From assembly GCF_000027125.1 (NCBI RefSeq), contig NC_017626.1: a DNA stretch of 64,000 nt; one strand, given 5' to 3'. The position numbers and the translations under genes are program-made. Below, piece after piece: positions 23,346-57,218 of this stretch (position 1 is the first letter of the stretch; each line of letters opens with the position of its first letter). The notes beneath the pieces are model-generated. The model made no database searches, was not told the DNA's origin, and saw only the letters and a program-made list of their open reading frames with translations. Source of the stretch: Escherichia coli 042 (lineage in GTDB: Bacteria > Pseudomonadota > Gammaproteobacteria > Enterobacterales > Enterobacteriaceae).

Positions 23346-24131
23346 TTAAATCTCAACGTCGCGGTTGCAATCTTTTGAGTAAATATAACTAAACGCTTCA
23401 CCACGCCCTACGCCATAACCGGCCTGTAAGGAATAAGCGCCCATAAAGATGTAATCGCCTTTTTTCACCGGGATCCAGTTATTGTCGAGGTTATAAACCC
23501 CCTGACCGGAAAGAATATAGGCACCGTGTTCCTGGACGTGAGTTTCGATATAACCGTGGCTGGCACCTGGCGCAAAAGAGAGGATATGCATGTTCATATC
23601 AAAACCTAACTCTTTGGGCAGAAAATCCAGCAGAATAACATCGTCCATGCCTTCATAATGAATGCGTTCGAGTTCGCTGGCATTGCCAGAAACCAGCCAC
23701 GGCGCATGACCTTCTACCGGAACATAGCGACGCTTATATAAAAAGATTTGGCTGTCTTCGGCCTGGGCGTTAACAAACGTCATTAAGGAGCCTGGTGGGC
23801 AATAAAGATAGCCACCTTCGCTTAAGGCAAATGTTTTACCTTCGGCTTTGGCAGTGATATTTCCAGAGATCACATACAGGAACGTTTCAATGCCTTCGCC
23901 CCCGAAGCCCTGTTGGTTGCCACCGTTTTGATGCAGTGTGACCAGATAATCAACAAAAGAGGCACCCAGCTTTGGCGTGGAGAGGATTGTCGCGTCACAA
24001 TTTTCAAAGCCCGGAATAATATTTTTTACCAGACCGTCCGGGGTTAGCAGCGCGAAATTACCGTGTTTCACAATCGCACGGTTAGCCAGTAAATCATCGC
24101 GGTAACCGGTGACGTTATTTAAATATCCCAT
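23346..24131 (-). CDS. allE: (S)-ureidoglycine aminohydrolase (bicupin)
   Basis: 261 aa; cotranscribed position with allC and allD. Confidence 0.85.
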   Translation of the reverse strand: MGYLNNVTGYRDDLLANRAIVKHGNFALLTPDGLVKNIIPGFENCDATILSTPKLGASFVDYLVTLHQNGGNQQGFGGEGIETFLYVISGNITAKAEGKTFALSEGGYLYCPPGSLMTFVNAQAEDSQIFLYKRRYVPVEGHAPWLVSGNASELERIHYEGMDDVILLDFLPKELGFDMNMHILSFAPGASHGYIETHVQEHGAYILSGQGVYNLDNNWIPVKKGDYIFMGAYSLQAGYGVGRGEAFSYIYSKDCNRDVEI

Positions 24132-24141
24132 TTATAACTCC

Positions 24142-25377
24142 TTATTTCTGCCAGGCAAGTTGATAAAGCATGAGTGCCAACGTTTTGACCCCTTCGGCAA
24201 GGTCGGTAATATTGGTGCGTTCTGCCGGGTTATGGCTGATCCCGTTGATGCTGGGGATAAAAATCATGCAGGTCGGCACGCGCGGCGCGAAAATTTGTGC
24301 GTCGTGCCCGGCACCACTGTGCATCACCCGGTAATTCAGTTTTTCGCGTTCACACAATTCTGTCAGGGTGGCGACCAGTTCCTTGTTCATCGGCACGGGT
24401 TCTTCGTCCATCCATAAATCGATATCAATACCAATGTCCATTTCATCGCAAATCGCCCGCATGTCGTTTTCTAACTGTTGGGTGAAATCGCGCAGCACGG
24501 CAGCATCGGTATGGCGACAATCAATGGTGAACGTGGTTTTACCCGGCACCACATTCACCGTATTCGGGCGCGGCTCTACTTTGCCAAAGGTCAGAACCAG
24601 CGGATCGCCCATCTTTTTCGCTTTTTCGACAGACTGATGGCAAATGCGACTGAAAGCGTAAACCGTATCACGACGATAACCCATCGGCGTGGTGCCTGCA
24701 TGGTTTGATTCGCCGTTCAGCGTCACCGTATAGCGACGCTGCCCGACAATTGCATTCACCACGCCAATTGACTGCCCATTGCTTTCCAGCACACAGCCCT
24801 GTTCAATATGCAGTTCAACAAAGGCTTTAATATCCTGACGCGGAGTTAGTGGGGCGTTCGGCAGAGTAAATCCGCAAGCCTTCATCGCATCGACAAAACT
24901 ATTTCCTTTGGCATCACAGATATTCCGCACGTCGTCAGGATTCGCCAGCCCAAAGATATTTTTACTGCCCCAGAAGACATACGGGAAGCGGCTGCCTTCT
25001 TCTTCTGCCATCGCCACCACTTCGACCGTACGTAACGGCGCGCCGTATTGCGTTTTCAGCCAGTCAATTGCCAGCCACGCCGCCAGCGCGCCGAATTGCC
25101 CGTCGAGGTTACCGCCGTTAACCACGGTATCGATATGCGAACCGCTCAGAACCACTTCTTGTGGATATTCGGTGCCACTCAGGCGACCATATAAATTCCC
25201 CACTTCATCGAAACGTGTTTCCAGCCCGCTTGCTGCCATTCTTTTTTTAAATTGCTGCTGAGTTTCCAGCCATTCCGGCGAATAAAGTAAACGGGTCATC
25301 CCACCCGTTGGGTCAGCGCCAAAAGAGGAAAGCCAGGGCAGCGTTTCTTCTATGGCTTGACGGAAATGTGTAATCAT
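24142..25377 (-). CDS. allC: allantoate amidohydrolase (M20 peptidase family)
   Basis: Start at MITHFRQAIEET gives 411 aa. Confidence 0.9.
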   Translation of the reverse strand: MITHFRQAIEETLPWLSSFGADPTGGMTRLLYSPEWLETQQQFKKRMAASGLETRFDEVGNLYGRLSGTEYPQEVVLSGSHIDTVVNGGNLDGQFGALAAWLAIDWLKTQYGAPLRTVEVVAMAEEEGSRFPYVFWGSKNIFGLANPDDVRNICDAKGNSFVDAMKACGFTLPNAPLTPRQDIKAFVELHIEQGCVLESNGQSIGVVNAIVGQRRYTVTLNGESNHAGTTPMGYRRDTVYAFSRICHQSVEKAKKMGDPLVLTFGKVEPRPNTVNVVPGKTTFTIDCRHTDAAVLRDFTQQLENDMRAICDEMDIGIDIDLWMDEEPVPMNKELVATLTELCEREKLNYRVMHSGAGHDAQIFAPRVPTCMIFIPSINGISHNPAERTNITDLAEGVKTLALMLYQLAWQK

Positions 25378-25398
25378 AAGAAAGTCCTGTCTCAATAA

Positions 25399-26448
25399 TT
25401 ATTGCGCAAAGGGATTTTTCGTTTCGTATGACGTGTTATAAAGCGCGTCAGAAATTAAATACTGGTAAATATCATCAACAATTTCGATGCCTTCGACGGC
25501 GGCTTTGCGTTGTTTAATATCCTGATCCTGTCCGGGATAATAAACCTGGTTAAAACCGGGCGCGGGGGTTATGGCATTTAATTCGCGCATGGTCTGGCTA
25601 AGATGTTGACGGAATAGTTCGCTGGAGGAGAAAAAGTTCGGGTTAATAACGATATGTAATTGCCCCAAATTACGCCCGGCGTGTAAATCGTCATACATCG
25701 AACTAACCTGTCGCCCGAACGGTAAACCGAGTAAGACGCCTGAGAGGACGTCAATCATCATCATCAGGCCATACCCTTTCGGTCCGGCGGCAGGGAGCAG
25801 GGCGTTAACTGCAAATGGATCGGTTGTTGGTGCTCCGTTTTTATCGACCGCCCAGGTATCCGGGATAGACATATTACGCGAGCGGGCGTCGAGCACTTTT
25901 CCCCATGCCTGTACGGTAGTCGCCATATCAAAGGTAAGGATCTCGTCGCCTTCTCCCGGCGCGGCAAAGGCCAGTGGGTTAGTACCGTAGTAAATTTCCG
26001 CGCCGCCAAACGGCACCACCATTGGATCGGACTGGCACATCGAAATGCCAATTAACCCGGCGCGAGCTGCCTGCTGTACAAAATAAGAGATTGCGCCGCT
26101 GTGACCCATCCGGCTGATACCGACCACCGCAACGCCTTTTTGCTGGGCGGTTTTGATGGCATGTTCCATACCCATTTTCGCCGCGACCTGTCCGGCAGCA
26201 TTGTCGGCATGTAAAATTGCCGAACACGGCCCGGTTTCCTCAAGACGAAACTCCGGTTCGCGGTTGGTGCCGCCTTTTGAAATGCGTTCCGCGTAGTATT
26301 CCACGCGCACCGCGCCATGAGAGTGGATCCCTCTGGCATCGGCGTAAACCAATACTTCAGCCACGGTTGCAGCGTGCTCACGTTTTAACCCAGCCTGGCA
26401 GAGTTTATTCTCGATTAGCTGGTGGAGTGTTTCCCGACTGATTTTCAT
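25399..26448 (-). CDS. allD: ureidoglycolate dehydrogenase
   Basis: 349 aa; Ldh-2-type oxidoreductase. Confidence 0.9.
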   Translation of the reverse strand: MKISRETLHQLIENKLCQAGLKREHAATVAEVLVYADARGIHSHGAVRVEYYAERISKGGTNREPEFRLEETGPCSAILHADNAAGQVAAKMGMEHAIKTAQQKGVAVVGISRMGHSGAISYFVQQAARAGLIGISMCQSDPMVVPFGGAEIYYGTNPLAFAAPGEGDEILTFDMATTVQAWGKVLDARSRNMSIPDTWAVDKNGAPTTDPFAVNALLPAAGPKGYGLMMMIDVLSGVLLGLPFGRQVSSMYDDLHAGRNLGQLHIVINPNFFSSSELFRQHLSQTMRELNAITPAPGFNQVYYPGQDQDIKQRKAAVEGIEIVDDIYQYLISDALYNTSYETKNPFAQ

Positions 26449-26764
26449 CTGTCTTCCTTTTTAACGACGGTGTGAAGCATGACTGCAATTAACATACAGG
26501 GAAAATATCTGGATTATGTGATCCAGACAGGCAAAAAAATATAGTTAGAATTTATTTGATAATCCGCTCGCTTTTAACCTGGTTTTTAAAACAACCACGC
26601 TTATTAAAAAATAACACGTAATAGCCTGGCGGTTATTTGAATTCTTTTGTTAATAATCCCTATGTGATATTCATCACCTTATTTACTCGTTGTCATCGAT
26701 ACCGTAATCGCCACATTAACACTGCTCGTGCAATTGCCATGGGTGCAATTTTTAAGGAGTTGTT

Positions 26765-28432
26765 ATGATCCACGCCTTTATTAAAAAAGGGTGTTTTCAG
26801 GATTCGGTCAGTTTAATGATTATTTCACGAAAACTCAGCGAATCAGAAAATGTTGATGATGTTTCCGTAATGATGGGTACGCCCGCCAATAAAGCGTTAT
26901 TAGATACCACAGGTTTCTGGCATGACGATTTTAATAACGCCACGCCGAACGATATTTGCGTGGCAATTCGTAGCGAAGCGGCGGATGCGGGGATCGCGCA
27001 GGCGATTATGCAACAGCTTGAAGAGGCGCTAAAACAACTGGCGCAGGGTTCAGGCAGCAGCCAGGCGTTGACGCAGGTGCGTCGCTGGGACAGTGCCTGT
27101 CAGAAATTACCCGACGCCAGTCTGGCGCTGATTTCAGTGGCTGGCGAGTATGCGGCGGAGCTGGCGAATCAGGCGCTGGATCGCAACCTCAACGTGATGA
27201 TGTTCTCTGATAACGTCACGCTGGAAGATGAAATCCAACTTAAAACCCGCGCGCGGGAAAAAGGCTTGCTGGTGATGGGGCCGGACTGCGGTACGTCGAT
27301 GATTGCCGGCACGCCGCTGGCTTTTGCTAACGTGATGCCGGAAGGCAACATTGGCGTCATTGGCGCTTCCGGTACCGGGATTCAGGAGCTGTGCTCACAG
27401 ATTGCGCTGGCAGGGGAGGGAATTACCCACGCGATTGGTCTTGGCGGGCGCGACCTCAGCCGTGAAGTGGGCGGCATCAGTGCGCTAACGGCGCTGGAAA
27501 TGCTCAGCGCAGACGAGAAAAGCGAAGTGCTGGCATTTGTTTCAAAACCACCTGCCGAAGCTGTGCGTCTGAAAATTGTTAATGCCATGAAAGCAACTGG
27601 CAAACCGACGGTGGCGCTGTTTTTAGGTTATACCCCGGCGGTGGCCCGCGACGAGAATGTCTGGTTTGCCTCCTCGCTTGATGAGGCCGCACGCCTGGCT
27701 TGCCTGCTTTCACGCGTCACGGCGCGACGTAACGCAATAGCACCTGTCAGCAGCGGATTTATTTGCGGTTTGTATACCGGCGGTACGCTGGCTGCTGAAG
27801 CGGCGGGATTACTTGCCGGACACCTTGGCGTGGAAGCCGACGATACCCATCAACATGGCATGATGCTCGACGCCGACGGACATCAGATCCTCGACCTGGG
27901 CGATGATTTTTACACCGTCGGGCGTCCCCATCCGATGATCGACCCGACCTTACGCAACCTGTTAATTGCCGATCTCGGCGCTAAACCGCAAGTGCGCGTG
28001 TTGCTGCTTGATGTCGTGATTGGCTTCGGTGCGACTGCCGATCCTGCCGCCTCGCTGGTGAGCGCCTGGCAAAAAGCCTGTGCCGCGCGTCCAGACAATC
28101 AACCACTGTATGCCATTGCCACGGTGACAGGCACCGAACGTGACCCGCAATGCCGCTCGCAACAAATCGCCACGCTGGAAGATGCGGGGATCGCGGTCGT
28201 GAGTTCGCTGCCGGAAGCCACCTTGCTGGCGGCAGCGTTAATTCATCCGCTCTCGCCTGCCACACAGCAACACACACCGTCATTACTGGAAAACGTCGCC
28301 GTGATTAACATCGGATTACGCAGCTTTGCGCTGGCGCTACAAAGCGCCAGCAAACCGGTTGTGCATTACCAATGGTCGCCAGTCGCCGGCGGCAATAAAA
28401 AACTGGCTCGTTTATTAGAACGTTTGCAATAA
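26765..28432 (+). CDS. fdrA: FdrA (succinyl-CoA synthetase alpha-like CoA-binding protein)
   Basis: 555 aa; preceded by an AT-rich promoter region. Confidence 0.85.
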   Translation: MIHAFIKKGCFQDSVSLMIISRKLSESENVDDVSVMMGTPANKALLDTTGFWHDDFNNATPNDICVAIRSEAADAGIAQAIMQQLEEALKQLAQGSGSSQALTQVRRWDSACQKLPDASLALISVAGEYAAELANQALDRNLNVMMFSDNVTLEDEIQLKTRAREKGLLVMGPDCGTSMIAGTPLAFANVMPEGNIGVIGASGTGIQELCSQIALAGEGITHAIGLGGRDLSREVGGISALTALEMLSADEKSEVLAFVSKPPAEAVRLKIVNAMKATGKPTVALFLGYTPAVARDENVWFASSLDEAARLACLLSRVTARRNAIAPVSSGFICGLYTGGTLAAEAAGLLAGHLGVEADDTHQHGMMLDADGHQILDLGDDFYTVGRPHPMIDPTLRNLLIADLGAKPQVRVLLLDVVIGFGATADPAASLVSAWQKACAARPDNQPLYAIATVTGTERDPQCRSQQIATLEDAGIAVVSSLPEATLLAAALIHPLSPATQQHTPSLLENVAVINIGLRSFALALQSASKPVVHYQWSPVAGGNKKLARLLERLQ

Positions 28433-28441
28433 GGGGTTCCC

Positions 28442-29701
28442 ATGTTTACATCAGTGGCGCAAGCCAATGCTGCGGTTATCGAACAAATTCGTCGTGCTCG
28501 TCCACACTGGCTGGATGTGCAACCGGCTTCTTCACTTATCAGCGAACTAAACGAGGGCAAAACACTGCTTCACGCCGGGCCGCCAATGTGCTGGCAGGAG
28601 ATGACCGGACCCATGAAAGGGGCATGTGTGGGCGCATGTCTGTTTGAAGGCTGGGCGAAAGATGAAGCGCAGGCGCTGGCAATGCTGGATCAGGGGGAAG
28701 TGAACTTCATTCCTTGTCACCATGTGAATGCCGTCGGGCCAATGGGCGGCATTACTTCTGCCAGTATGCCGATGCTGGTGGTCGAGAACGTGACCGACGG
28801 CAACCGGGCGTACTGCAACCTCAACGAAGGTATCGGCAAAGTGATGCGTTTTGGCGCTTACGGCGAAGATGTCCTGACTCGCCATCGCTGGATGCGCGAT
28901 GTGTTAATGCCAGTATTAAGCGCGGCGCTGGGGCGCATGGAGCGCGGTATCGATCTCACCGCGATGATGGCGCAGGGCATTACCATGGGCGATGAGTTCC
29001 ATCAACGCAATATTGCTTCCTCAGCACTGTTAATGCGTACGCTGGCCCCACAAATTGCTCGCCTCGATCATGATAAACAGCACATTGCGGAAGTGATGGA
29101 TTTCCTCAGCGTGACCGATCAGTTCTTCCTCAACCTCGCGATGGCCTACTGCAAGGCGGCGATGGATGCTGGCGCGATGATCCGCTCAGGCAGCATCGTC
29201 ACGGCTATGACCCGCAACGGCAATATGTTCGGGATTCGGGTCAGCGGGCTGGGCGAACGCTGGTTTACTGCGCCTGTAAACACTCCCCAAGGTCTGTTTT
29301 TCACCGGTTTCTCGCAGGAGCAGGCGAACCCGGATATGGGCGATAGCGCAATTACCGAAACCTTTGGTATTGGCGGAGCGGCGATGATCGCAGCGCCTGG
29401 CGTAACGCGCTTTGTCGGTGCGGGTGGCATGGAAGCGGCCAGAGCGGTATCTGAAGAGATGGCGGAAATCTTCCTTGAACGCAATATGCAGTTGCAGATC
29501 CCCGGCTGGGATTTTCAGGGCGCGTGCCTGGGGCTGGATATTCGTCGCGTGGTAGAAACCGGCATTACGCCACTCATCAATACCGGTATCGCCCATAAAG
29601 AGGCGGGGATCGGGCAGATTGGCGCAGGCACTGTGCGGGCACCGCTGGCGTGCTTTGAACAGGCGCTGGAAGCACTGGCTGAAAGCATGGGGATTGGTTG
29701 A
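28442..29701 (+). CDS. ylbE: DUF1116 protein YlbE (intact)
   Basis: 419-aa uninterrupted ORF, 10 bp after fdrA. Confidence 0.8.
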
Positions 29702-29711
29702 GGAACGCACA

Positions 29712-30527
29712 ATGACGATCATCCATCCTCTGCTTGCCAGCCGTAGTGCACCGAATTATCGCCAGTCCTGGCGGTTAGCGGGCGTGTGGCGGCGGGCGAT
29801 TAACCTGATGACGGAAAGCGGTGAATTGTTAACACTGCATCGTCAGGGTAGTGGTTTCGGCCCCGGAGGATGGGTGCTTCGCCGCGCGCAATTCGATGCG
29901 TTATGCGGTGGATTATGCGGCAATGAACAACCGCAGGTTGTGGCACAAGGGATTCGCCTCGGACGTTTCACGGTTAAACAGCCACAGCGTTATTGTTTGC
30001 TGCGTATTACGCCGCCTGCGCATCCTCAACCGCTTGCAGCTGCATGGATGCAACGCGCGGAGGAAACCGGGCTTTTCGGGCCACTGGCGTTGGCGGCAGG
30101 CGATCCGCTTCCTGCTGAATTACGCCAGTTTCGCCACTGTTTTCAGGCCGCGCTCAATGGCGTGAAGACCGACTGGCGGCACTGGCTGGGCAAAGGTCCG
30201 GGATTAACGCCGAGTCATGATGACACGCTGAGCGGAATGCTGCTGGCGGCCTGGTATTATGGCGCTTTAGATACGCGCTCCGGTCGCCAGTTTTTTGCCT
30301 GTTCCGACAATCTTCAACTCGTTACCACAGCGGTGAGCGTCAGTTATTTACGTTATGCCGCGCAAGGATATTTCGCCTCGCCACTCCTGCACTTTGTCCA
30401 TGCTCTGAGTTGCCCGAAACGTACCGCTGTTGCGATTGATTCGCTGCTGGCGCTGGGGCATACGTCAGGGGCAGATACGCTGCTGGGGTTCTGGCTTGGT
30501 CAACAATTATTACAAGGAAAACCATGA
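29712..30527 (+). CDS. ylbF: YlbF (DUF2877)
   Basis: Start at [10 protein letters not shown] gives 271 aa; 4-bp overlap with the next gene. Confidence 0.8.
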
Positions 30528-31417
30528 AAACACTGGTTGTGGCTCTTGGGGGCAACGCCTTACTCCAGCGCGGCGAAGCGCTGACGGCAGAAAATCAATA
30601 TCGCAATATTGCCAGTGCTGTACCCGCGTTGACGCGCCTGGCCCGTTCTTATCGGCTGGCGATTGTTCACGGCAACGGGCCGCAGGTGGGGCTGCTGGCG
30701 TTACAGAATCTGGCGTGGAAAGAGGTAGAACCGTATCCGCTGGATGTGCTGGTAGCGGAAAGCCAGGGGATGATTGGCTATATGCTGGCGCAGAGCTTGA
30801 GCGCACAGCCGCAGATGCCGCCTGTCACGACGGTGCTGACGCGCATTGAGGTTTCGCCTGATGATCCGGCGTTTTTGCAGCCAGAGAAGTTTATCGGTCC
30901 GGTTTATCAGCCAGAAGAACAAGAGGCACTGGAAGCGGCTTATGGCTGGCAGATGAAACGTGATGGTAAATATTTGCGCCGGGTGGTGGCGTCTCCGCAA
31001 CCGCGTAAAATTCTCGACAGCGAAGCCATTGAGTTGTTGCTCAAAGAGGGGCATGTGGTGATTTGCAGTGGCGGCGGCGGTGTGCCTGTGACGAAAGACG
31101 GGGCAGGGAGTGAAGCAGTGATTGATAAAGATCTCGCCGCTGCGTTGCTCGCTGCGCAGATTAACGCCGATGGGCTGGTGATCCTCACCGATGCTGACGC
31201 GGTTTATGAAAACTGGGGAACGCCGCAGCAACGCGCCATTCGCCGTGCCACACCGGATGAGTTAGCGCCATTTGCCAAAGCCGATGGTTCGATGGGGCCG
31301 AAGGTAACGGCGGTGAGTGGCTATGTCAGAAGCCGTGGCAAACCTGCGTGGATTGGGGCGTTATCGCGGATTGAAGAGACGCTGGCGGGCGAAGCGGGGA
31401 CCTGTATTTCGCTGTAG
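30524..31417 (+). CDS. ybcF: carbamate kinase-like protein
   Basis: 297 aa; amino-acid kinase fold ([15 protein letters not shown]-terminus). Confidence 0.85.
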
Positions 31418-44746: not shown

Positions 44747-44823
44747 GCGCCCTTAGCTCAGTTGGATAGAGCAACGACCTTCTAAGTCGTGGGCCGCAGG
44801 TTCGAATCCTGCAGGGCGCGCCA
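44747..44823 (+). tRNA. argU: tRNA-Arg (anticodon UCU)
   Basis: 77-nt cloverleaf: acceptor gcgccct.../...agggcgc-CCA, D-arm agctcagttggatagagc, anticodon loop cTTCTAa, T-arm ggttcgaatcc. Confidence 0.95.
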
Positions 44824-51900: not shown

Positions 51901-52236
51901 ACAAAAACCTTACATTAACGCTGGTTATGTTTAGGGTGGCGTATATTAAGGTTTTTTATGAATTGTGACAGCTTTTTACCATTAATAGGTATGACTATTG
52001 CGGCACGTTATTTTTACACTGGTTATAAAAGTTGCCGTTTGCGTAGAATGTAGACAAAAGCGTGGTGTCAAGGAGGGGCGGTAAACGTCATAGTGAAGAG
52101 GAGTGGTGGCACCGATCAGGTCATCATGTAGTGTAAGCGTCTGGAGGAGGTGAGCAGGGGAGATCATTTTCCCCGTGCTGAACAAAAAGACGGCGTTGCT
52201 GTGGGTACAGGAAGGCTAACTTCATTTCTCTTTAGA

Positions 52237-52773
52237 TTATTTAAGTTTAATATTCAACCAGGAAATAAAGAACGTTAAAATAACAAAGGAAAAAACAATC
52301 AAAGAGACATTCCTGAAAAATACGTGCTCATAAAAAAGATAAAAAACGTACAAAATTGGGCACGCAACTTTCAGGACGTTTATATGTTTAGAATTCTCTT
52401 TATCTTTAAAGTTAAAATTACATAAAAATATAAAGAAATATGAAAGCATGGCTGAAAACATCATTGATAAGGCGCGATATGGCAGTCCTGAATTAAAGGT
52501 TTCGACTCCTAATAATATTGTCGATAGCGTTGCAATTATAATTGCCACTTTTTTACTAGAGGTGAAAGTAACGACAAAAAATATCAATGATATAAATAAG
52601 AAAGAAAAAAATATGTAAATATTTGTTGATATATGTACTTTATGAGGAACTGTAAAATAGGTATAACTGATTGTAATTATGATGGTAATTATTCTGTATA
52701 GCATGCATGCTAACAGGCCAATCAGTAGTTTGTTCGCAAATTTATAAGGGGATTCGCTATTGGTTGATTGCAT
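52237..52773 (-). CDS. hypothetical polytopic membrane protein (178 aa), AT-rich, island gene
   Basis: Four to six hydrophobic segments; Ile/Phe/Lys-rich composition typical of horizontally acquired genes. Confidence 0.5.
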   Translation of the reverse strand: MQSTNSESPYKFANKLLIGLLACMLYRIITIIITISYTYFTVPHKVHISTNIYIFFSFLFISLIFFVVTFTSSKKVAIIIATLSTILLGVETFNSGLPYRALSMMFSAMLSYFFIFLCNFNFKDKENSKHINVLKVACPILYVFYLFYEHVFFRNVSLIVFSFVILTFFISWLNIKLK

Positions 52774-52837
52774 GGTTATTATGCTCTTGAATTGTGTATT
52801 TTATTGGAATGTTTCTTGGTTAACTAAAACAATGCAT

Positions 52838-53266
52838 TTAATAGGTGGTGGTGTAAATATCAATGTCATACTCATTATCACAGACTACTATTACTCTACG
52901 AGTTATGTCAAAAAATAACGTTAAATCATAGGTTCCCTGTTCTCTGAAAATACTCTGCGCAAATGACGTGAAATTATTCCCATTTATAACTATTTTTACT
53001 TTACCTTCATAGATAAGCCAGCAACGAAAACATTCAGCTGTACCAGATAATGTCACTATCTGACTGATTAGAAGATTTATATTTACCGGATGAGGTAAAA
53101 AAAGTCTGTCGTTGAGGCAATCAATATTATGTGTTTGATGAAACTCTTTTCTCATTAATGAAGAGTTATCATATAGCAGGGTTATACTAAACGAGTCAAT
53201 TCCGTCAAGCTTTTGCATAAATTTGTTTGCTTTATAAATAAGCAACTTTGCTTGTGTTTTTGTCAT
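52838..53266 (-). CDS. hypothetical protein (142 aa), island gene
   Basis: ORF-track ORF, AT-rich, same orientation and tight spacing with neighbours. Confidence 0.45.
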   Translation of the reverse strand: MTKTQAKLLIYKANKFMQKLDGIDSFSITLLYDNSSLMRKEFHQTHNIDCLNDRLFLPHPVNINLLISQIVTLSGTAECFRCWLIYEGKVKIVINGNNFTSFAQSIFREQGTYDLTLFFDITRRVIVVCDNEYDIDIYTTTY

Positions 53267-53293
53267 GATGGTGATCTTTTATGCAAGGGGGAA

Positions 53294-53740
53294 TTATTGG
53301 AATTCAAATGTTTTATATTCCTCTGTAATCATCTTTAAACTTAACATAGCCATGTCTCGGGTATCTTCATCATCAGATTGTAGAGAAATATTTAATCCTT
53401 TAATTAAGGTGTTATCGGGAAAAGCCATTGCCAATAATGTATACCAACATCGGACACTTTTTATTGTCAGAGGATTTTCCAGTATGTTGGCGATATTTGA
53501 AGCTATAATGTTTTTATCACACTTGTACAAAAAATCTTCGACCAACTGATATACACCGAAGCCATCACCTTCCCCAAACGATTGTAAAAATAACGGTATG
53601 GCTTCTTCAGCAGGATTTGCAGAAAAATAAAGCCTTACATTGTTATATTTATTGATAAGTTCCTGAGTGATGTCATAATCATTTGGCATAGGTTGGTTTA
53701 GAGCAAGGAATGCTAATGCTTCTTTTTTAGTCATATTCAT
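53294..53740 (-). CDS. hypothetical protein (148 aa); possible orphan immunity protein
   Basis: ORF-track ORF, acidic and largely helical by eye; AT-rich and next to IS/Rhs remnants. Confidence 0.4.
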   Translation of the reverse strand: MNMTKKEALAFLALNQPMPNDYDITQELINKYNNVRLYFSANPAEEAIPLFLQSFGEGDGFGVYQLVEDFLYKCDKNIIASNIANILENPLTIKSVRCWYTLLAMAFPDNTLIKGLNISLQSDDEDTRDMAMLSLKMITEEYKTFEFQ

Positions 53741-53760
53741 AATGGTTAATATTGCTTGCT

Positions 53761-54313
53761 GGAAGAATTAAGGTAAAAATGGTTCATAGACAGAATTAAA
53801 TAGGAAGTCTTGTTTCCAGATAACTTTATCATGAAAAAGAGATTTGGCTTGATGCGTATAAAGATTATGAGGATAAATAGTTTCTCCACCATAAATGATG
53901 TTCTTTCCCGTTACACCGGAGAATTCATTGGCTATAATCTGTCGTTTAAGCCAGTGAATGACTTTACATAAGCATATTAATTTATCCTTAGAATCAGTTG
54001 TGTTAATTTCAGTAAGTTGTAAAATCTTTTCCCCATTATACTCAACTAAATGCCCCGGCTTTATTTCAATTCAACCACAATAACGATCAATGCTACTAAA
54101 CTTTATTCTTCTATTGTTAGGTTTAATGCTGGGCATAAGATAAATTCGATGTGCTACGGCAGGGATCTTTTCTGTTAAGACATTTAATTGCTTAGAGTAT
54201 TCATCTTGTAGTGTAAACCAAATTGAATGTAATTTGTATTTTGAGGCTACAATCGCGAGCCAATTAGACAGTTCCTCGTTCGTGCAAAAAACATTTATCC
54301 TGGCAGTTGCCAT
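53761..54313 (-). pseudogene. frameshifted hypothetical gene (~180 codons in two frames)
   Basis: The 80-aa ORF 54071-54313 stops at 54071, but an open frame continues in another frame to ~53761 (IEIKPGHLVEYNGEKILQLTEINTTDSKDKLICLCK...). Confidence 0.4.
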
Positions 54314-54346
54314 TCGTAATCCTTTTTATATAAGATTGTGTGAATG

Positions 54347-54549
54347 TCACCGAAACAACTTGATATGAATAAAATAGCTAAAGCGAAATGGATGACGTGT
54401 TACTAAAAAACCATTCTGAAAAGGAAGCCTGAATAAACGCGATGACGAAACTTCCACTCTCCATGTTTCATCAGAAAAATAACTAAATTCGATGTGGTTT
54501 TCATATAATCTCATTTCACGTAAGGTTCCGCTACCATAAGGGACCGCAA
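54347..54549 (-). pseudogene. orphan 3' gene fragment abutting the H-repeat end
   Basis: The track ORF 54347-54583 starts inside the element's terminal repeat; only the part outside the element can be native. Confidence 0.3.
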
Positions 54550-54550
54550 T

Positions 54551-55841
54551 CAGGGAAAGATTACGAAAGCCCGCTCCCAGCAAGGACTGACGCCAGATAG
54601 TTTCTGTCCATGGCTGCTTTTCGCATCTTACGTCTTAACCCTGCCTTGAATACCTTATCATTCGTCAAAATATTAATAGCGATGTGCCGTATCCCTGAAA
54701 ATAATTCTGCGGCGTTTCCTCTTCTTATTTTGCAGTCGTCTTCATTCATTACCACGTCCAGACGCCAGTGCAGCTTATTCTCCACGTGCCAGCGGTTTCG
54801 GATTGCTGTGGCGAACTTCTCTGCGGTTAAATCAGCACAACTGATATAATATCTGACCGTCATTTCTGGCTCTTTCTTTTGTTCTGCTATTATTGACCGA
54901 AAGGAGACTGCCACGCATAATTTCTTCAGACCTTTCCATTCAAACGTGAAATCAATAAGTTCATCAGGGACATCGCAAACAATGTGAAGACGGATTTCTT
55001 CTCTGCCGTGACTCTTTTCACTAATTGCGTAACTGTCATGCTCTGGATTATTTAATTCTTTCAGTGGGAATTTTTCCTCAAAGGCTTTATTAAGCCGCCC
55101 CTGATTTCCTTTTACAGCGAATAAATAATCACCGCCCTGTTTTTGTATCTTCTCTGCAATATCTTTCTGGCAACCCATCGCATCAGTTGTGATGATTTTT
55201 CCTTTAATATCCAGCATGTTAAGAAGTTCAGGGATAGCTGTAATCTCATTTGATTTCTCATCCGTCCTGATCTGTCCGATGACCAGACTGTGCATTGTTG
55301 AGAACGCACTAATGACATGAATCGCTCCCTTGCGGCGACTCTTGTCATAAGAATGCCGGAGTGTTTTTCCATCAATTGCGATGACGTCTTTATCATCTGA
55401 AGAATGGCAGTCACGCATCCAGTTAATAAAGCACTCGTGAAATTTTGCAGGACTGATACAGGATACAACTCTGGCAATAGTATCGTGAACAGGAATACCA
55501 TTATCAAAATCACCATATTGCTTCAAAAAATCGAGATGTGTTTCCCCAAAATCCTCTATATCTTCCCAGCCTTCTGCACCCGAAATAACGGCACAAATAG
55601 TCAACAGTAGAATATCCGATAATTTATGTTCCACTTTCCAGGCTTGTCTGTAATCGGGGATAATAGAAATATGTTCCATCAATTTTTTAAGTTCCATTTT
55701 GTTCTCCTTAATTATGTAAGGAGTATTTGATCATGTATAAGCAATAAAAAACAGCTTTAGGTAATGAGGAATATCTCAATTTGTAAACATAAAATGCGAA
55801 TTATTTAGTACAAAAAGTGTACTTCTGATGATCTTTCCCTG
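54551..55841 (-). mobile_element. H-repeat / ISAs1-family insertion sequence, copy 1 (apparently intact)
   Basis: ~1.29 kb bounded by inverted repeats cagggaaagat (54551-54561) and atctttccctg (55831-55841); contains one long transposase ORF. Confidence 0.8.
54561..55697 (-). CDS. H-repeat-associated (ISAs1-family) transposase, 378 aa
   Basis: 378-aa ORF of the size and character of E. coli Rhs-associated H-repeat proteins; a second disrupted copy lies at 56.7-58.6 kb. Confidence 0.8.
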
Positions 55842-56045
55842 GGAGGTGATACTGACCGTCTGCCCGAATTCGTCATAGAGGAAAAACGTCGCGCCGCCCT
55901 CCGGGTCAATTTCACACACCGGAAGCCGGTCTTCACTGAAGCGGATAATGGTGGTATGCCCCAGCGAATCAGTCATCTCCAGCTCATGGCAGAAATCATT
56001 CCATACAAAGTGGTAGTCGTAGTACCCGCCGTCGCCCAACAGCAA
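55842..56045 (-). pseudogene. YD-repeat (Rhs-like) gene fragment truncated by the H-repeat
   Basis: YD-type repeat signature (...CEIDPEGGATFFLYDEFGQTVSITSQ) runs into the element end; no upstream Rhs core. Confidence 0.45.
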
Positions 56046-56062
56046 TCAATCATCGAATCAAA

Positions 56063-56524
56063 TTAACTTGACAAGGTTTTTATTTTTTCGTGTTCGAAAA
56101 ATAAATGTAGCATAGCGTCATTAATATTACCGCCTATAATACAAAAATAGTTATCAAAACCACCATAAAGAGCACCATCATCTGAAATAAAATATGTCAT
56201 ATGCTCAGAAAAACCAACACCAACAGGACATAAACGCTTATTGACCAATGGTTCATAGACTTCAGTTATCCATTTAGAGTCTATCCAACCAGCAGCTTTT
56301 ATTGGATCAAAATCGGATTTATCATACTCATTAGGATCTGAATAAGATTCATGCCGTACTATCAACCCTCCAAACTCTGATAAAAAATCACAAATAATTT
56401 CATTAACAAAATATTTCTTAATGGATAAACACTTTATATATTTATCTATGTTTTCTTTTCTGCCATAGTGCCATCCATTTTGCAACAGGACACTCATCAC
56501 TTGTTTATTCGTTATATGATTCAT
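56063..56524 (-). CDS. candidate immunity protein for the upstream deaminase-like toxin tip (153 aa)
   Basis: Starts 2 nt after the toxin-fragment stop (TAATTATG), the usual toxin-immunity coupling; family not assigned from sequence alone. Confidence 0.45.
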   Translation of the reverse strand: MNHITNKQVMSVLLQNGWHYGRKENIDKYIKCLSIKKYFVNEIICDFLSEFGGLIVRHESYSDPNEYDKSDFDPIKAAGWIDSKWITEVYEPLVNKRLCPVGVGFSEHMTYFISDDGALYGGFDNYFCIIGGNINDAMLHLFFEHEKIKTLSS

Positions 56525-56526
56525 AA

Positions 56527-56704
56527 TTACCCCGTTAATACATCAATTCCTAAATATTTGAAAATTTCCTGACAGTTTCTACAGTTCGGAAAAGCACTTC
56601 CATCACCAGTATGAACTGTAGCCATTTCCAAATCATGCAACGATGAATTATCTTTGAGAGCTTTATTCACCGCATCTATTTCAGCACAATTATTAACAGC
56701 CCAA
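56527..56704 (-). pseudogene. truncated C-terminal toxin domain with nucleotide deaminase-like motifs
   Basis: Native ~59 codons after the IS boundary: ...NNCAEIDAVNKAL...(33 aa)...AFPNCRNCQEIF..., i.e. a [C/H]AE helix plus CxxC pair with deaminase-fold spacing; the 5' part is replaced by the H-repeat. Confidence 0.5.
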
Positions 56705-57218
56705 GGCAAGATTACGAAAGCCCGCACCCCGCAAGGACTGCCGCCAGGTAGTTTCTGTCCATGGCTGCTTTTCGCATCTTACGTCTTAACCCTGCCTTGA
56801 ATACCTTATCATTCGTTAAAATATTAATAGCGATGTGCCGTATCCCTGAAAATAATTCTGCGGCGTTTCCTCTTCTTATTTTGCAGTCGTCTTCATTCAT
56901 TACCACGTCCAGACGCCAGTGCAGCTTATTCTCCACGTGCCAGTGGTTTCGGATTGCTGTGGCGAACTTCTCTGCGGTTAAATCAGCAGAACTGATATAA
57001 TATCTGACCGTCATTTCTGGCTCTTTCTTTTGTTCTGCTATTATTGACCGAAAGGAGACTGCCACGCATAATTTCTTCAGACCTTTCCATTCAAACGTGA
57101 AATCAATAAGTTCATCAGGGACATCGCAAACAATGTGAAGACGGATTTCTTCTCTGCCGTGACTCTTTTCACTCATTGCGTAACTGTTATGCTCTGGATT
57201 ATTGGTAATGACTCCAAC

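Follow-up and report, generated by a model that had tools for sequence, protein, structure and literature searches.

In Escherichia coli MG1655, fdrA, ylbE and ylbF (allF, allG and allH) together encode an oxamic transcarbamylase (OXTCase) that catalyses the reaction oxalurate + Pi <-> carbamoyl phosphate + oxamate, as established by gene deletion, complementation and kinetics of the purified enzyme (PMC11326118). Deletion of allF or allG in this strain abolishes the formation of oxamate from allantoin altogether, and deletion of allH leaves approximately 1 mM, compared with 17.7 mM in the wild type (PMC11326118). When the triple mutant is complemented, single genes yield no oxamate, allFG yields 7% and allGH 16%, and allFGH restores the wild-type level (PMC11326118). 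The fourth gene, ybcF (allK), encodes a catabolic carbamate kinase, which yields ATP, NH3 and CO2 from carbamoyl phosphate, and is co-transcribed with the other three in MG1655 (PMC9843812). Anaerobically and in the presence of allantoin, allFGHK needs both AllS and ArcA to be transcribed (PMC12535856). For ylbE, identity, intactness, K-12 history and function have all been described before, the function between 2022 and 2025 for MG1655 (Kim & Kim 2022, 2024).

Here, we compare with these systems a stretch of E. coli DNA of 64,000 nucleotides (the window), using open reading frames, profile searches, alignments to K-12 records, searches of complete E. coli genomes and structure prediction. We conclude with high confidence that positions 28442-29701 of the window are a normal, intact ylbE (allG), the second gene of the allFGHK operon in the E. 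coli allantoin cluster.

Layout of the allFGHK locus in the window

The operon and its divergent neighbours are arranged as follows.

23346-26448, minus strand: allE-allC-allD (allDCE operon), oxalurate supply to AllFGH; from the open reading frames and the annotation of strain 118UI (DNA-identical at this locus) and of MG1655
26449-26764, no strand: divergent allD/allF control region, 316 nt; from alignment to MG1655
26765-28432, plus strand: fdrA (allF), intact, 555 aa; Pfam CoA_binding and Ligase_CoA, NCBIfam NF004760 (FdrA, 1039 bits), PDB 3dmy
28442-29701, plus strand: ylbE (allG), intact, 419 codons, oxamic transcarbamylase (oxamate carbamoyltransferase) subunit
29712-30527, plus strand: ylbF (allH), intact, 271 aa; Pfam PF11392 (AllH), E 1.4e-29
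30524-31417, plus strand: ybcF (allK), intact, 297 aa, catabolic carbamate kinase (PMC9843812); Pfam AA_kinase domain, NCBIfam NF006926 (615.6 bits)

In the list of open reading frames of the window, ylbE is a single frame that runs from ATG to TGA with no internal stop, and its start lies 9 nt (TAAGGGGTTCCCATG) behind the stop of fdrA, which bears out the initial annotation in so far as it described an uninterrupted 419-codon frame directly after fdrA. Downstream, 10 nt separate the ylbE stop from the ylbF start at 29712, and ylbF and ybcF overlap by 4 nt, the ATGA at 30524-30527. At the window's G+C content of 49%, the chance of a stop-free run of 419 codons is about 1e-9 per start position. 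The product matches the Pfam profile PF06545 (AllG) over its full length (positions 1-215 of 215) with an E value of 8.8e-98 and a score of 326.5 bits (cut-off 27), and because of this match ylbE is taken as a real gene rather than a chance reading frame. A programmed frameshift or a split gene is ruled out for the window, where the frame is unbroken and collinear with its homologues over residues 2-414. Among the NCBIfam models, none matched YlbE or YlbF, and a scan of the operon for consensus promoters and terminators returned matches no more numerous than in shuffled sequence. The gene order allF-allG-allH-allK, divergent from allDCE, is identical in MG1655 and 118UI.

The current MG1655 reference (NC_000913.3) carries ylbE (b4572, YP_009029994.1) as an intact coding sequence of 1,260 bp at 548357-549616, between fdrA and ylbF. 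This agrees with the allG that was cloned from MG1655 (1,260 bp, 419 aa; PMC11326118, Table 5). The initial annotation had set the window apart from K-12, where ylbE was described as split or frameshifted, and had proposed an alignment of the two; once aligned, this contrast falls away, as the copy in NC_000913.3 is intact and of equal length, the very outcome that the annotation had given as its refutation. At the DNA level the window and MG1655 genes are 97.2% identical, with 35 differences and no indels, and the protein alignment is gap-free across all 419 columns, at 98% identity, both the window YlbE and the characterised MG1655 protein (PMC11326118) being 419 aa long. Start, stop and neighbours (fdrA on the 5' side, ylbF and ybcF on the 3' side, and divergent allDCE) are equal as well. 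The differences amount to seven residues, C50R, M81I, D83E, T200A, S249A, F344Y and G355S (window>K-12). The other three products match their MG1655 counterparts in length and align to them without gaps: FdrA is identical at 548 of 555 residues, YlbF at 266 of 271, and YbcF at 292 of 297. Synonymous codon differences outnumber non-synonymous ones in fdrA (32/7), ylbE (28/7), ylbF (23/5) and ybcF (27/5), and this excess in all four genes indicates a pattern that would fit purifying selection.

In E. coli, and K-12 is no exception, ylbE is normally intact. Of 5,426 complete E. coli genomes, 5,417 contain 80% or more of the gene, and in an evenly spaced sample taken down the ranking of matches, all 39 full-length matches are exactly 1,260 bp long and annotated as ylbE, the single short match in the sample being that of AR_0085. 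In that genome (NZ_CP029741.1, L005 2774-4439) a true deletion fuses a truncated fdrA to a truncated ylbE, with ylbF and ybcF kept, a rare case of the enzyme being lost in nature. Of the 5,422 places that match ylbE, two are on plasmids rather than chromosomes. The annotated ylbE of 118UI, a urinary isolate (WP_000495356.1), shows 100% identity to the window gene, whose allele is found at an identity of at least 99% in 184 genomes.

Further along the window, the tRNA-Arg(tct) gene argU is located at 44747-44823 and is directly followed by envY, ybcH, nfrA and nfrB, up to about 51900. The window has no prophage at argU, whereas 118UI, otherwise identical across ylbE, has a lambdoid prophage with intD there. 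Between nfrB and cusS, at about 52000-63000 of the window, there is a variable island with the following features.

54561-55697, minus strand: ISAs1-family transposase, intact
56063-56524, minus strand: SUKH-3 immunity open reading frame
56712-57176, 57219-57722 and 58155-58625: second ISAs1-type transposase, split by IS1
60679-61719 and 61831-62871, minus strand: two open reading frames of 346 aa, in length and order as the WD40-like frames of strain M7424

At the corresponding island, strain M7424 carries PAAR-like and HNH-toxin open reading frames besides the WD40-like ones. Positions 39001-64000 of the window are covered to at least 80% in only 14 of the 5,426 complete genomes, the best coverage being 93%.

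Origin of the split ylbE in K-12 records

Where does the split ylbE of K-12 come from? The W3110 record (NC_007779.1) places ylbE at 547581-548839 with a length of 1,259 bp and flags it as 'frameshifted'; its translation ends after 86 aa, which fits the old fragment name 'ylbE_1'. In a three-way DNA alignment, the W3110 record and MG1655 v3 differ within ylbE at two sites only, with A for G at nt 114 and GGGG for GGGGG at nt 252-256. The same alignment locates both sites in the window.

28553-28555, plus strand: codon 38, GAG (Glu), with the silent A/G site (547,694 of the old reference) linked to the frameshift allele as its third base; G in the window, as in MG1655 v3
28693-28697, plus strand: GGGGG run, gene nt 252-256, where the window reads GGATCAGGGGGAAG; GGGG in the W3110 record, the 'K-12 frameshift'

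The window has the locus in common with the W3110 pseudogene ('ylbE_1/ylbE_2' of the superseded MG1655 reference), but G4 and A114 are both absent from it: it carries GGGGG and G114, as does NC_000913.3.

A 170-bp W3110 segment spanning both sites was used to look for the pseudogene allele among 5,426 complete E. coli genomes, at a match of at least 99%. The G4/A114 allele occurs in 4 of the 5,412 genomes with a match, namely W3110, CIT, LIM and CAR; among the matches listed, all others carry both bases of the intact allele, including several MG1655 re-assemblies, C600, DH5alpha and J53. For CIT, LIM and CAR the coordinate of the match, 547,680/1, is that of the W3110 record. Because of this coincidence, together with the 4,639,673 bp of CIT, the data suggest that these three are assemblies guided by the old reference.

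In coordinates of the old reference, the two sites of ylbE are 547,694, a silent A>G change (E38E), and 547,831 (+G); resequencing studies have repeatedly found K-12 stocks to differ from that reference at these sites, and both changes are listed in an earlier report (PMC5460176). A547694G has been described as E38E in a W3110-derived laboratory strain (PMC5405962), and a 'ylbE_1' difference from the old MG1655 reference has been confirmed by Sanger sequencing (PMC2973815). Resequencing of K-12, ATCC 47076 included, found a ylbE+ allele (PMC4759930), and in NCM3722 the change in ylbE was described as having 'restored an intact ancestral gene' (PMC3045373). Judging from the coordinates quoted in these studies (PMC2973815, PMC5405962, PMC5460176), the old MG1655 reference had the allele of the W3110 record. 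The split ylbE belongs to first-generation K-12 records, corrected in the current MG1655 reference, and not to K-12 as it is now understood. Reportedly, the U00096.3 update took in the ylbE corrections after Freddolino et al. 2012.

Alternatively, the K-12 frameshift might be a real polymorphism, in which the run of five G residues slips and some stocks, such as the MG1655 seed and W3110, are truly ylbE-minus, so that the window would be biologically different from them. Slippage is plausible in a homopolymeric G run, the frameshifted 1,259-bp ylbE remains in the W3110 RefSeq record, and the CIT, LIM and CAR records share its allele. However, the frameshift allele is always paired with the silent A114, which slippage would not yield, and the coordinates of CIT, LIM and CAR hint at assembly guided by the old reference. 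Moreover, a W3110-derived laboratory strain has G at 547,694 (PMC5405962), the intact allele is found in MG1655 stocks of several laboratories, in NCM3722 and in ATCC 47076, and the curated NC_000913.3 is intact, with C600, DH5alpha, J53 and MG1655 re-assemblies among the matches listed reading G5. We consider a real polymorphism improbable in view of these observations. A further-reaching proposal, that the GGGGG run of allG is a true slippage hot spot that at times silences the oxamate branch of allantoin catabolism in some natural isolates or laboratory stocks, with a real off-variant, rather than a sequencing error, preserved in the old K-12 records, appears very unlikely. We retain the reading of the split gene as a feature of the first-generation records.

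The biological weight of an intact allG is small, this being the default in E. coli. Caution is nonetheless warranted, as both the literature and the W3110 record keep the label 'ylbE pseudogene'. For instance, two ylbE reference discrepancies have been reported as adaptive mutations in evolution experiments (PMC5460176), and a metabolic engineering study that words the gene as 'pseudogene ylbE' treated the W3110 'pseudogene ylbE locus' as neutral ground for integration (PMC7677707). Should ylbE of W3110 truly be intact, as the W3110-derived laboratory strain suggests (PMC5405962), insertions at this site would interrupt allG and probably also, through polarity, the expression of allH and allK.

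Expected function and regulation of the operon

The window operon probably works as it does in MG1655, given that each of its four products has full length and 98-99% identity to the MG1655 counterpart and that the junctions and control region are conserved. AllF, AllG and AllH would jointly form an oxamic transcarbamylase that acts on oxalurate, which the products of the divergent allDCE genes would supply, and AllK would convert the resulting carbamoyl phosphate into ATP, NH3 and CO2. The operon would be induced anaerobically with allantoin, via AllS and ArcA at the allD-allF intergenic region. The sequence of fdrA-ylbE-ylbF-ybcF holds nothing that argues against function. The initial annotation went further and called the module fully functional; what stands of this is that four full-length genes closely match those of MG1655, and function itself is an expectation drawn from the sequences.

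Regulation deserves separate consideration. The allD-fdrA intergenic region is 316 nt long in both the window and MG1655 and differs, in the alignment, by nine substitutions, all nine of which fall in a stretch of 93 nt (window 26570-26662, or -195 to -103 relative to the allF ATG) with identical flanks. EMSA with MG1655 sequences has shown that AllS and ArcA bind the fragments -203/-144 and -142/-83 (PMC12535856), and all nine substitutions lie within these fragments. The control-region variant of the window is present in 1,103 genomes at an identity of at least 99%. A quantitative regulatory difference from MG1655 may exist.

Could missense changes or altered regulation impair the operon in this strain, although the ylbE frame is intact? 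The seven residue differences in YlbE, the five to seven per protein in FdrA, YlbF and YbcF and the nine substitutions in that stretch of the control region which binds AllS and ArcA would be the places to look for such an effect, but the YlbE differences are all at positions that vary within the family, the preponderance of synonymous over non-synonymous changes points to purifying selection, and both ylbE (at least 99% identity in 184 genomes) and the control region (1,103 genomes) are common natural alleles. We give impairment a very slim chance. A role of YlbE other than transcarbamylation would follow from the older annotation of YlbE as a DUF1116 protein and of FdrA as an acyl-CoA synthetase that has accessory proteins. 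RefSeq still names the two products 'acyl-CoA synthetase' and 'DUF1116 domain-containing protein', respectively, the domains of FdrA resemble the alpha subunit of succinyl-CoA synthetase, and the fold of AllG offers no catalytic clue. Such a role is nevertheless extremely unlikely, as oxamate at the wild-type level needs allFGH together (allFG 7%, allGH 16%) and Pfam PF06545, formerly DUF1116, has been renamed AllG. The assignment of YlbE as a subunit of the oxamic transcarbamylase is the one we follow below.

AllG family, fold and known transcarbamylases

To place YlbE in its family, we scanned 1.84 billion representative proteins, collected 51 diverse full-length members and aligned them with the window protein (52 sequences in total). 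All seven differences between the window and MG1655 proteins are in columns that vary within this alignment, and among the 39 columns with conservation of 90% or more, the window YlbE agrees with the consensus in 38, the exception, Q294, being common to the functional MG1655 protein. The fold was taken from a model based on the 52-sequence alignment; a single-sequence AlphaFold2 model, with a pLDDT of 37, was discarded. The predicted fold matches PDB 3clq only, which would place YlbE structurally within its own family, and structure comparison of the predicted AllG fold found no solved relatives outside that family. PDB 3clq is a DUF1116 protein from another organism, Enterococcus faecalis V583, deposited without an assigned function as a 'conserved protein of unknown function'. 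The classical transcarbamylase superfamily (ATCase/OTCase fold) was also considered for YlbE and rejected, as neither the OTCace_N and OTCace domains nor the fold was found.

Many homologues of approximately 1,000 aa consist of FdrA-like CoA_binding and Ligase_CoA domains followed by a full AllG domain (for example P0003, P0010, P0011, P0013, P0015 and P0040). One of these, P0015, has an additional C-terminal ChrR cupin-like domain. In such fusions (for example P0003, P0010 and P0013) the AllG domain is 49-57% identical to the window YlbE, and a single polypeptide takes the place of the two adjacent genes of the window. Because natural FdrA-AllG fusion proteins exist, the comparison supports physical cooperation of the two proteins, with AllG acting in direct association with AllF.

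In conclusion, the closest described counterpart of the window locus is the allFGHK operon of MG1655, and the fused homologues join an FdrA-like part and an AllG domain in one chain. With the classical transcarbamylases, among them ATCase (PyrB), OTCase (ArgI/ArgF) and YgeW, OXTCase has in common the type of reaction, in which a carbamoyl group is passed to or from carbamoyl phosphate (PMC11326118).
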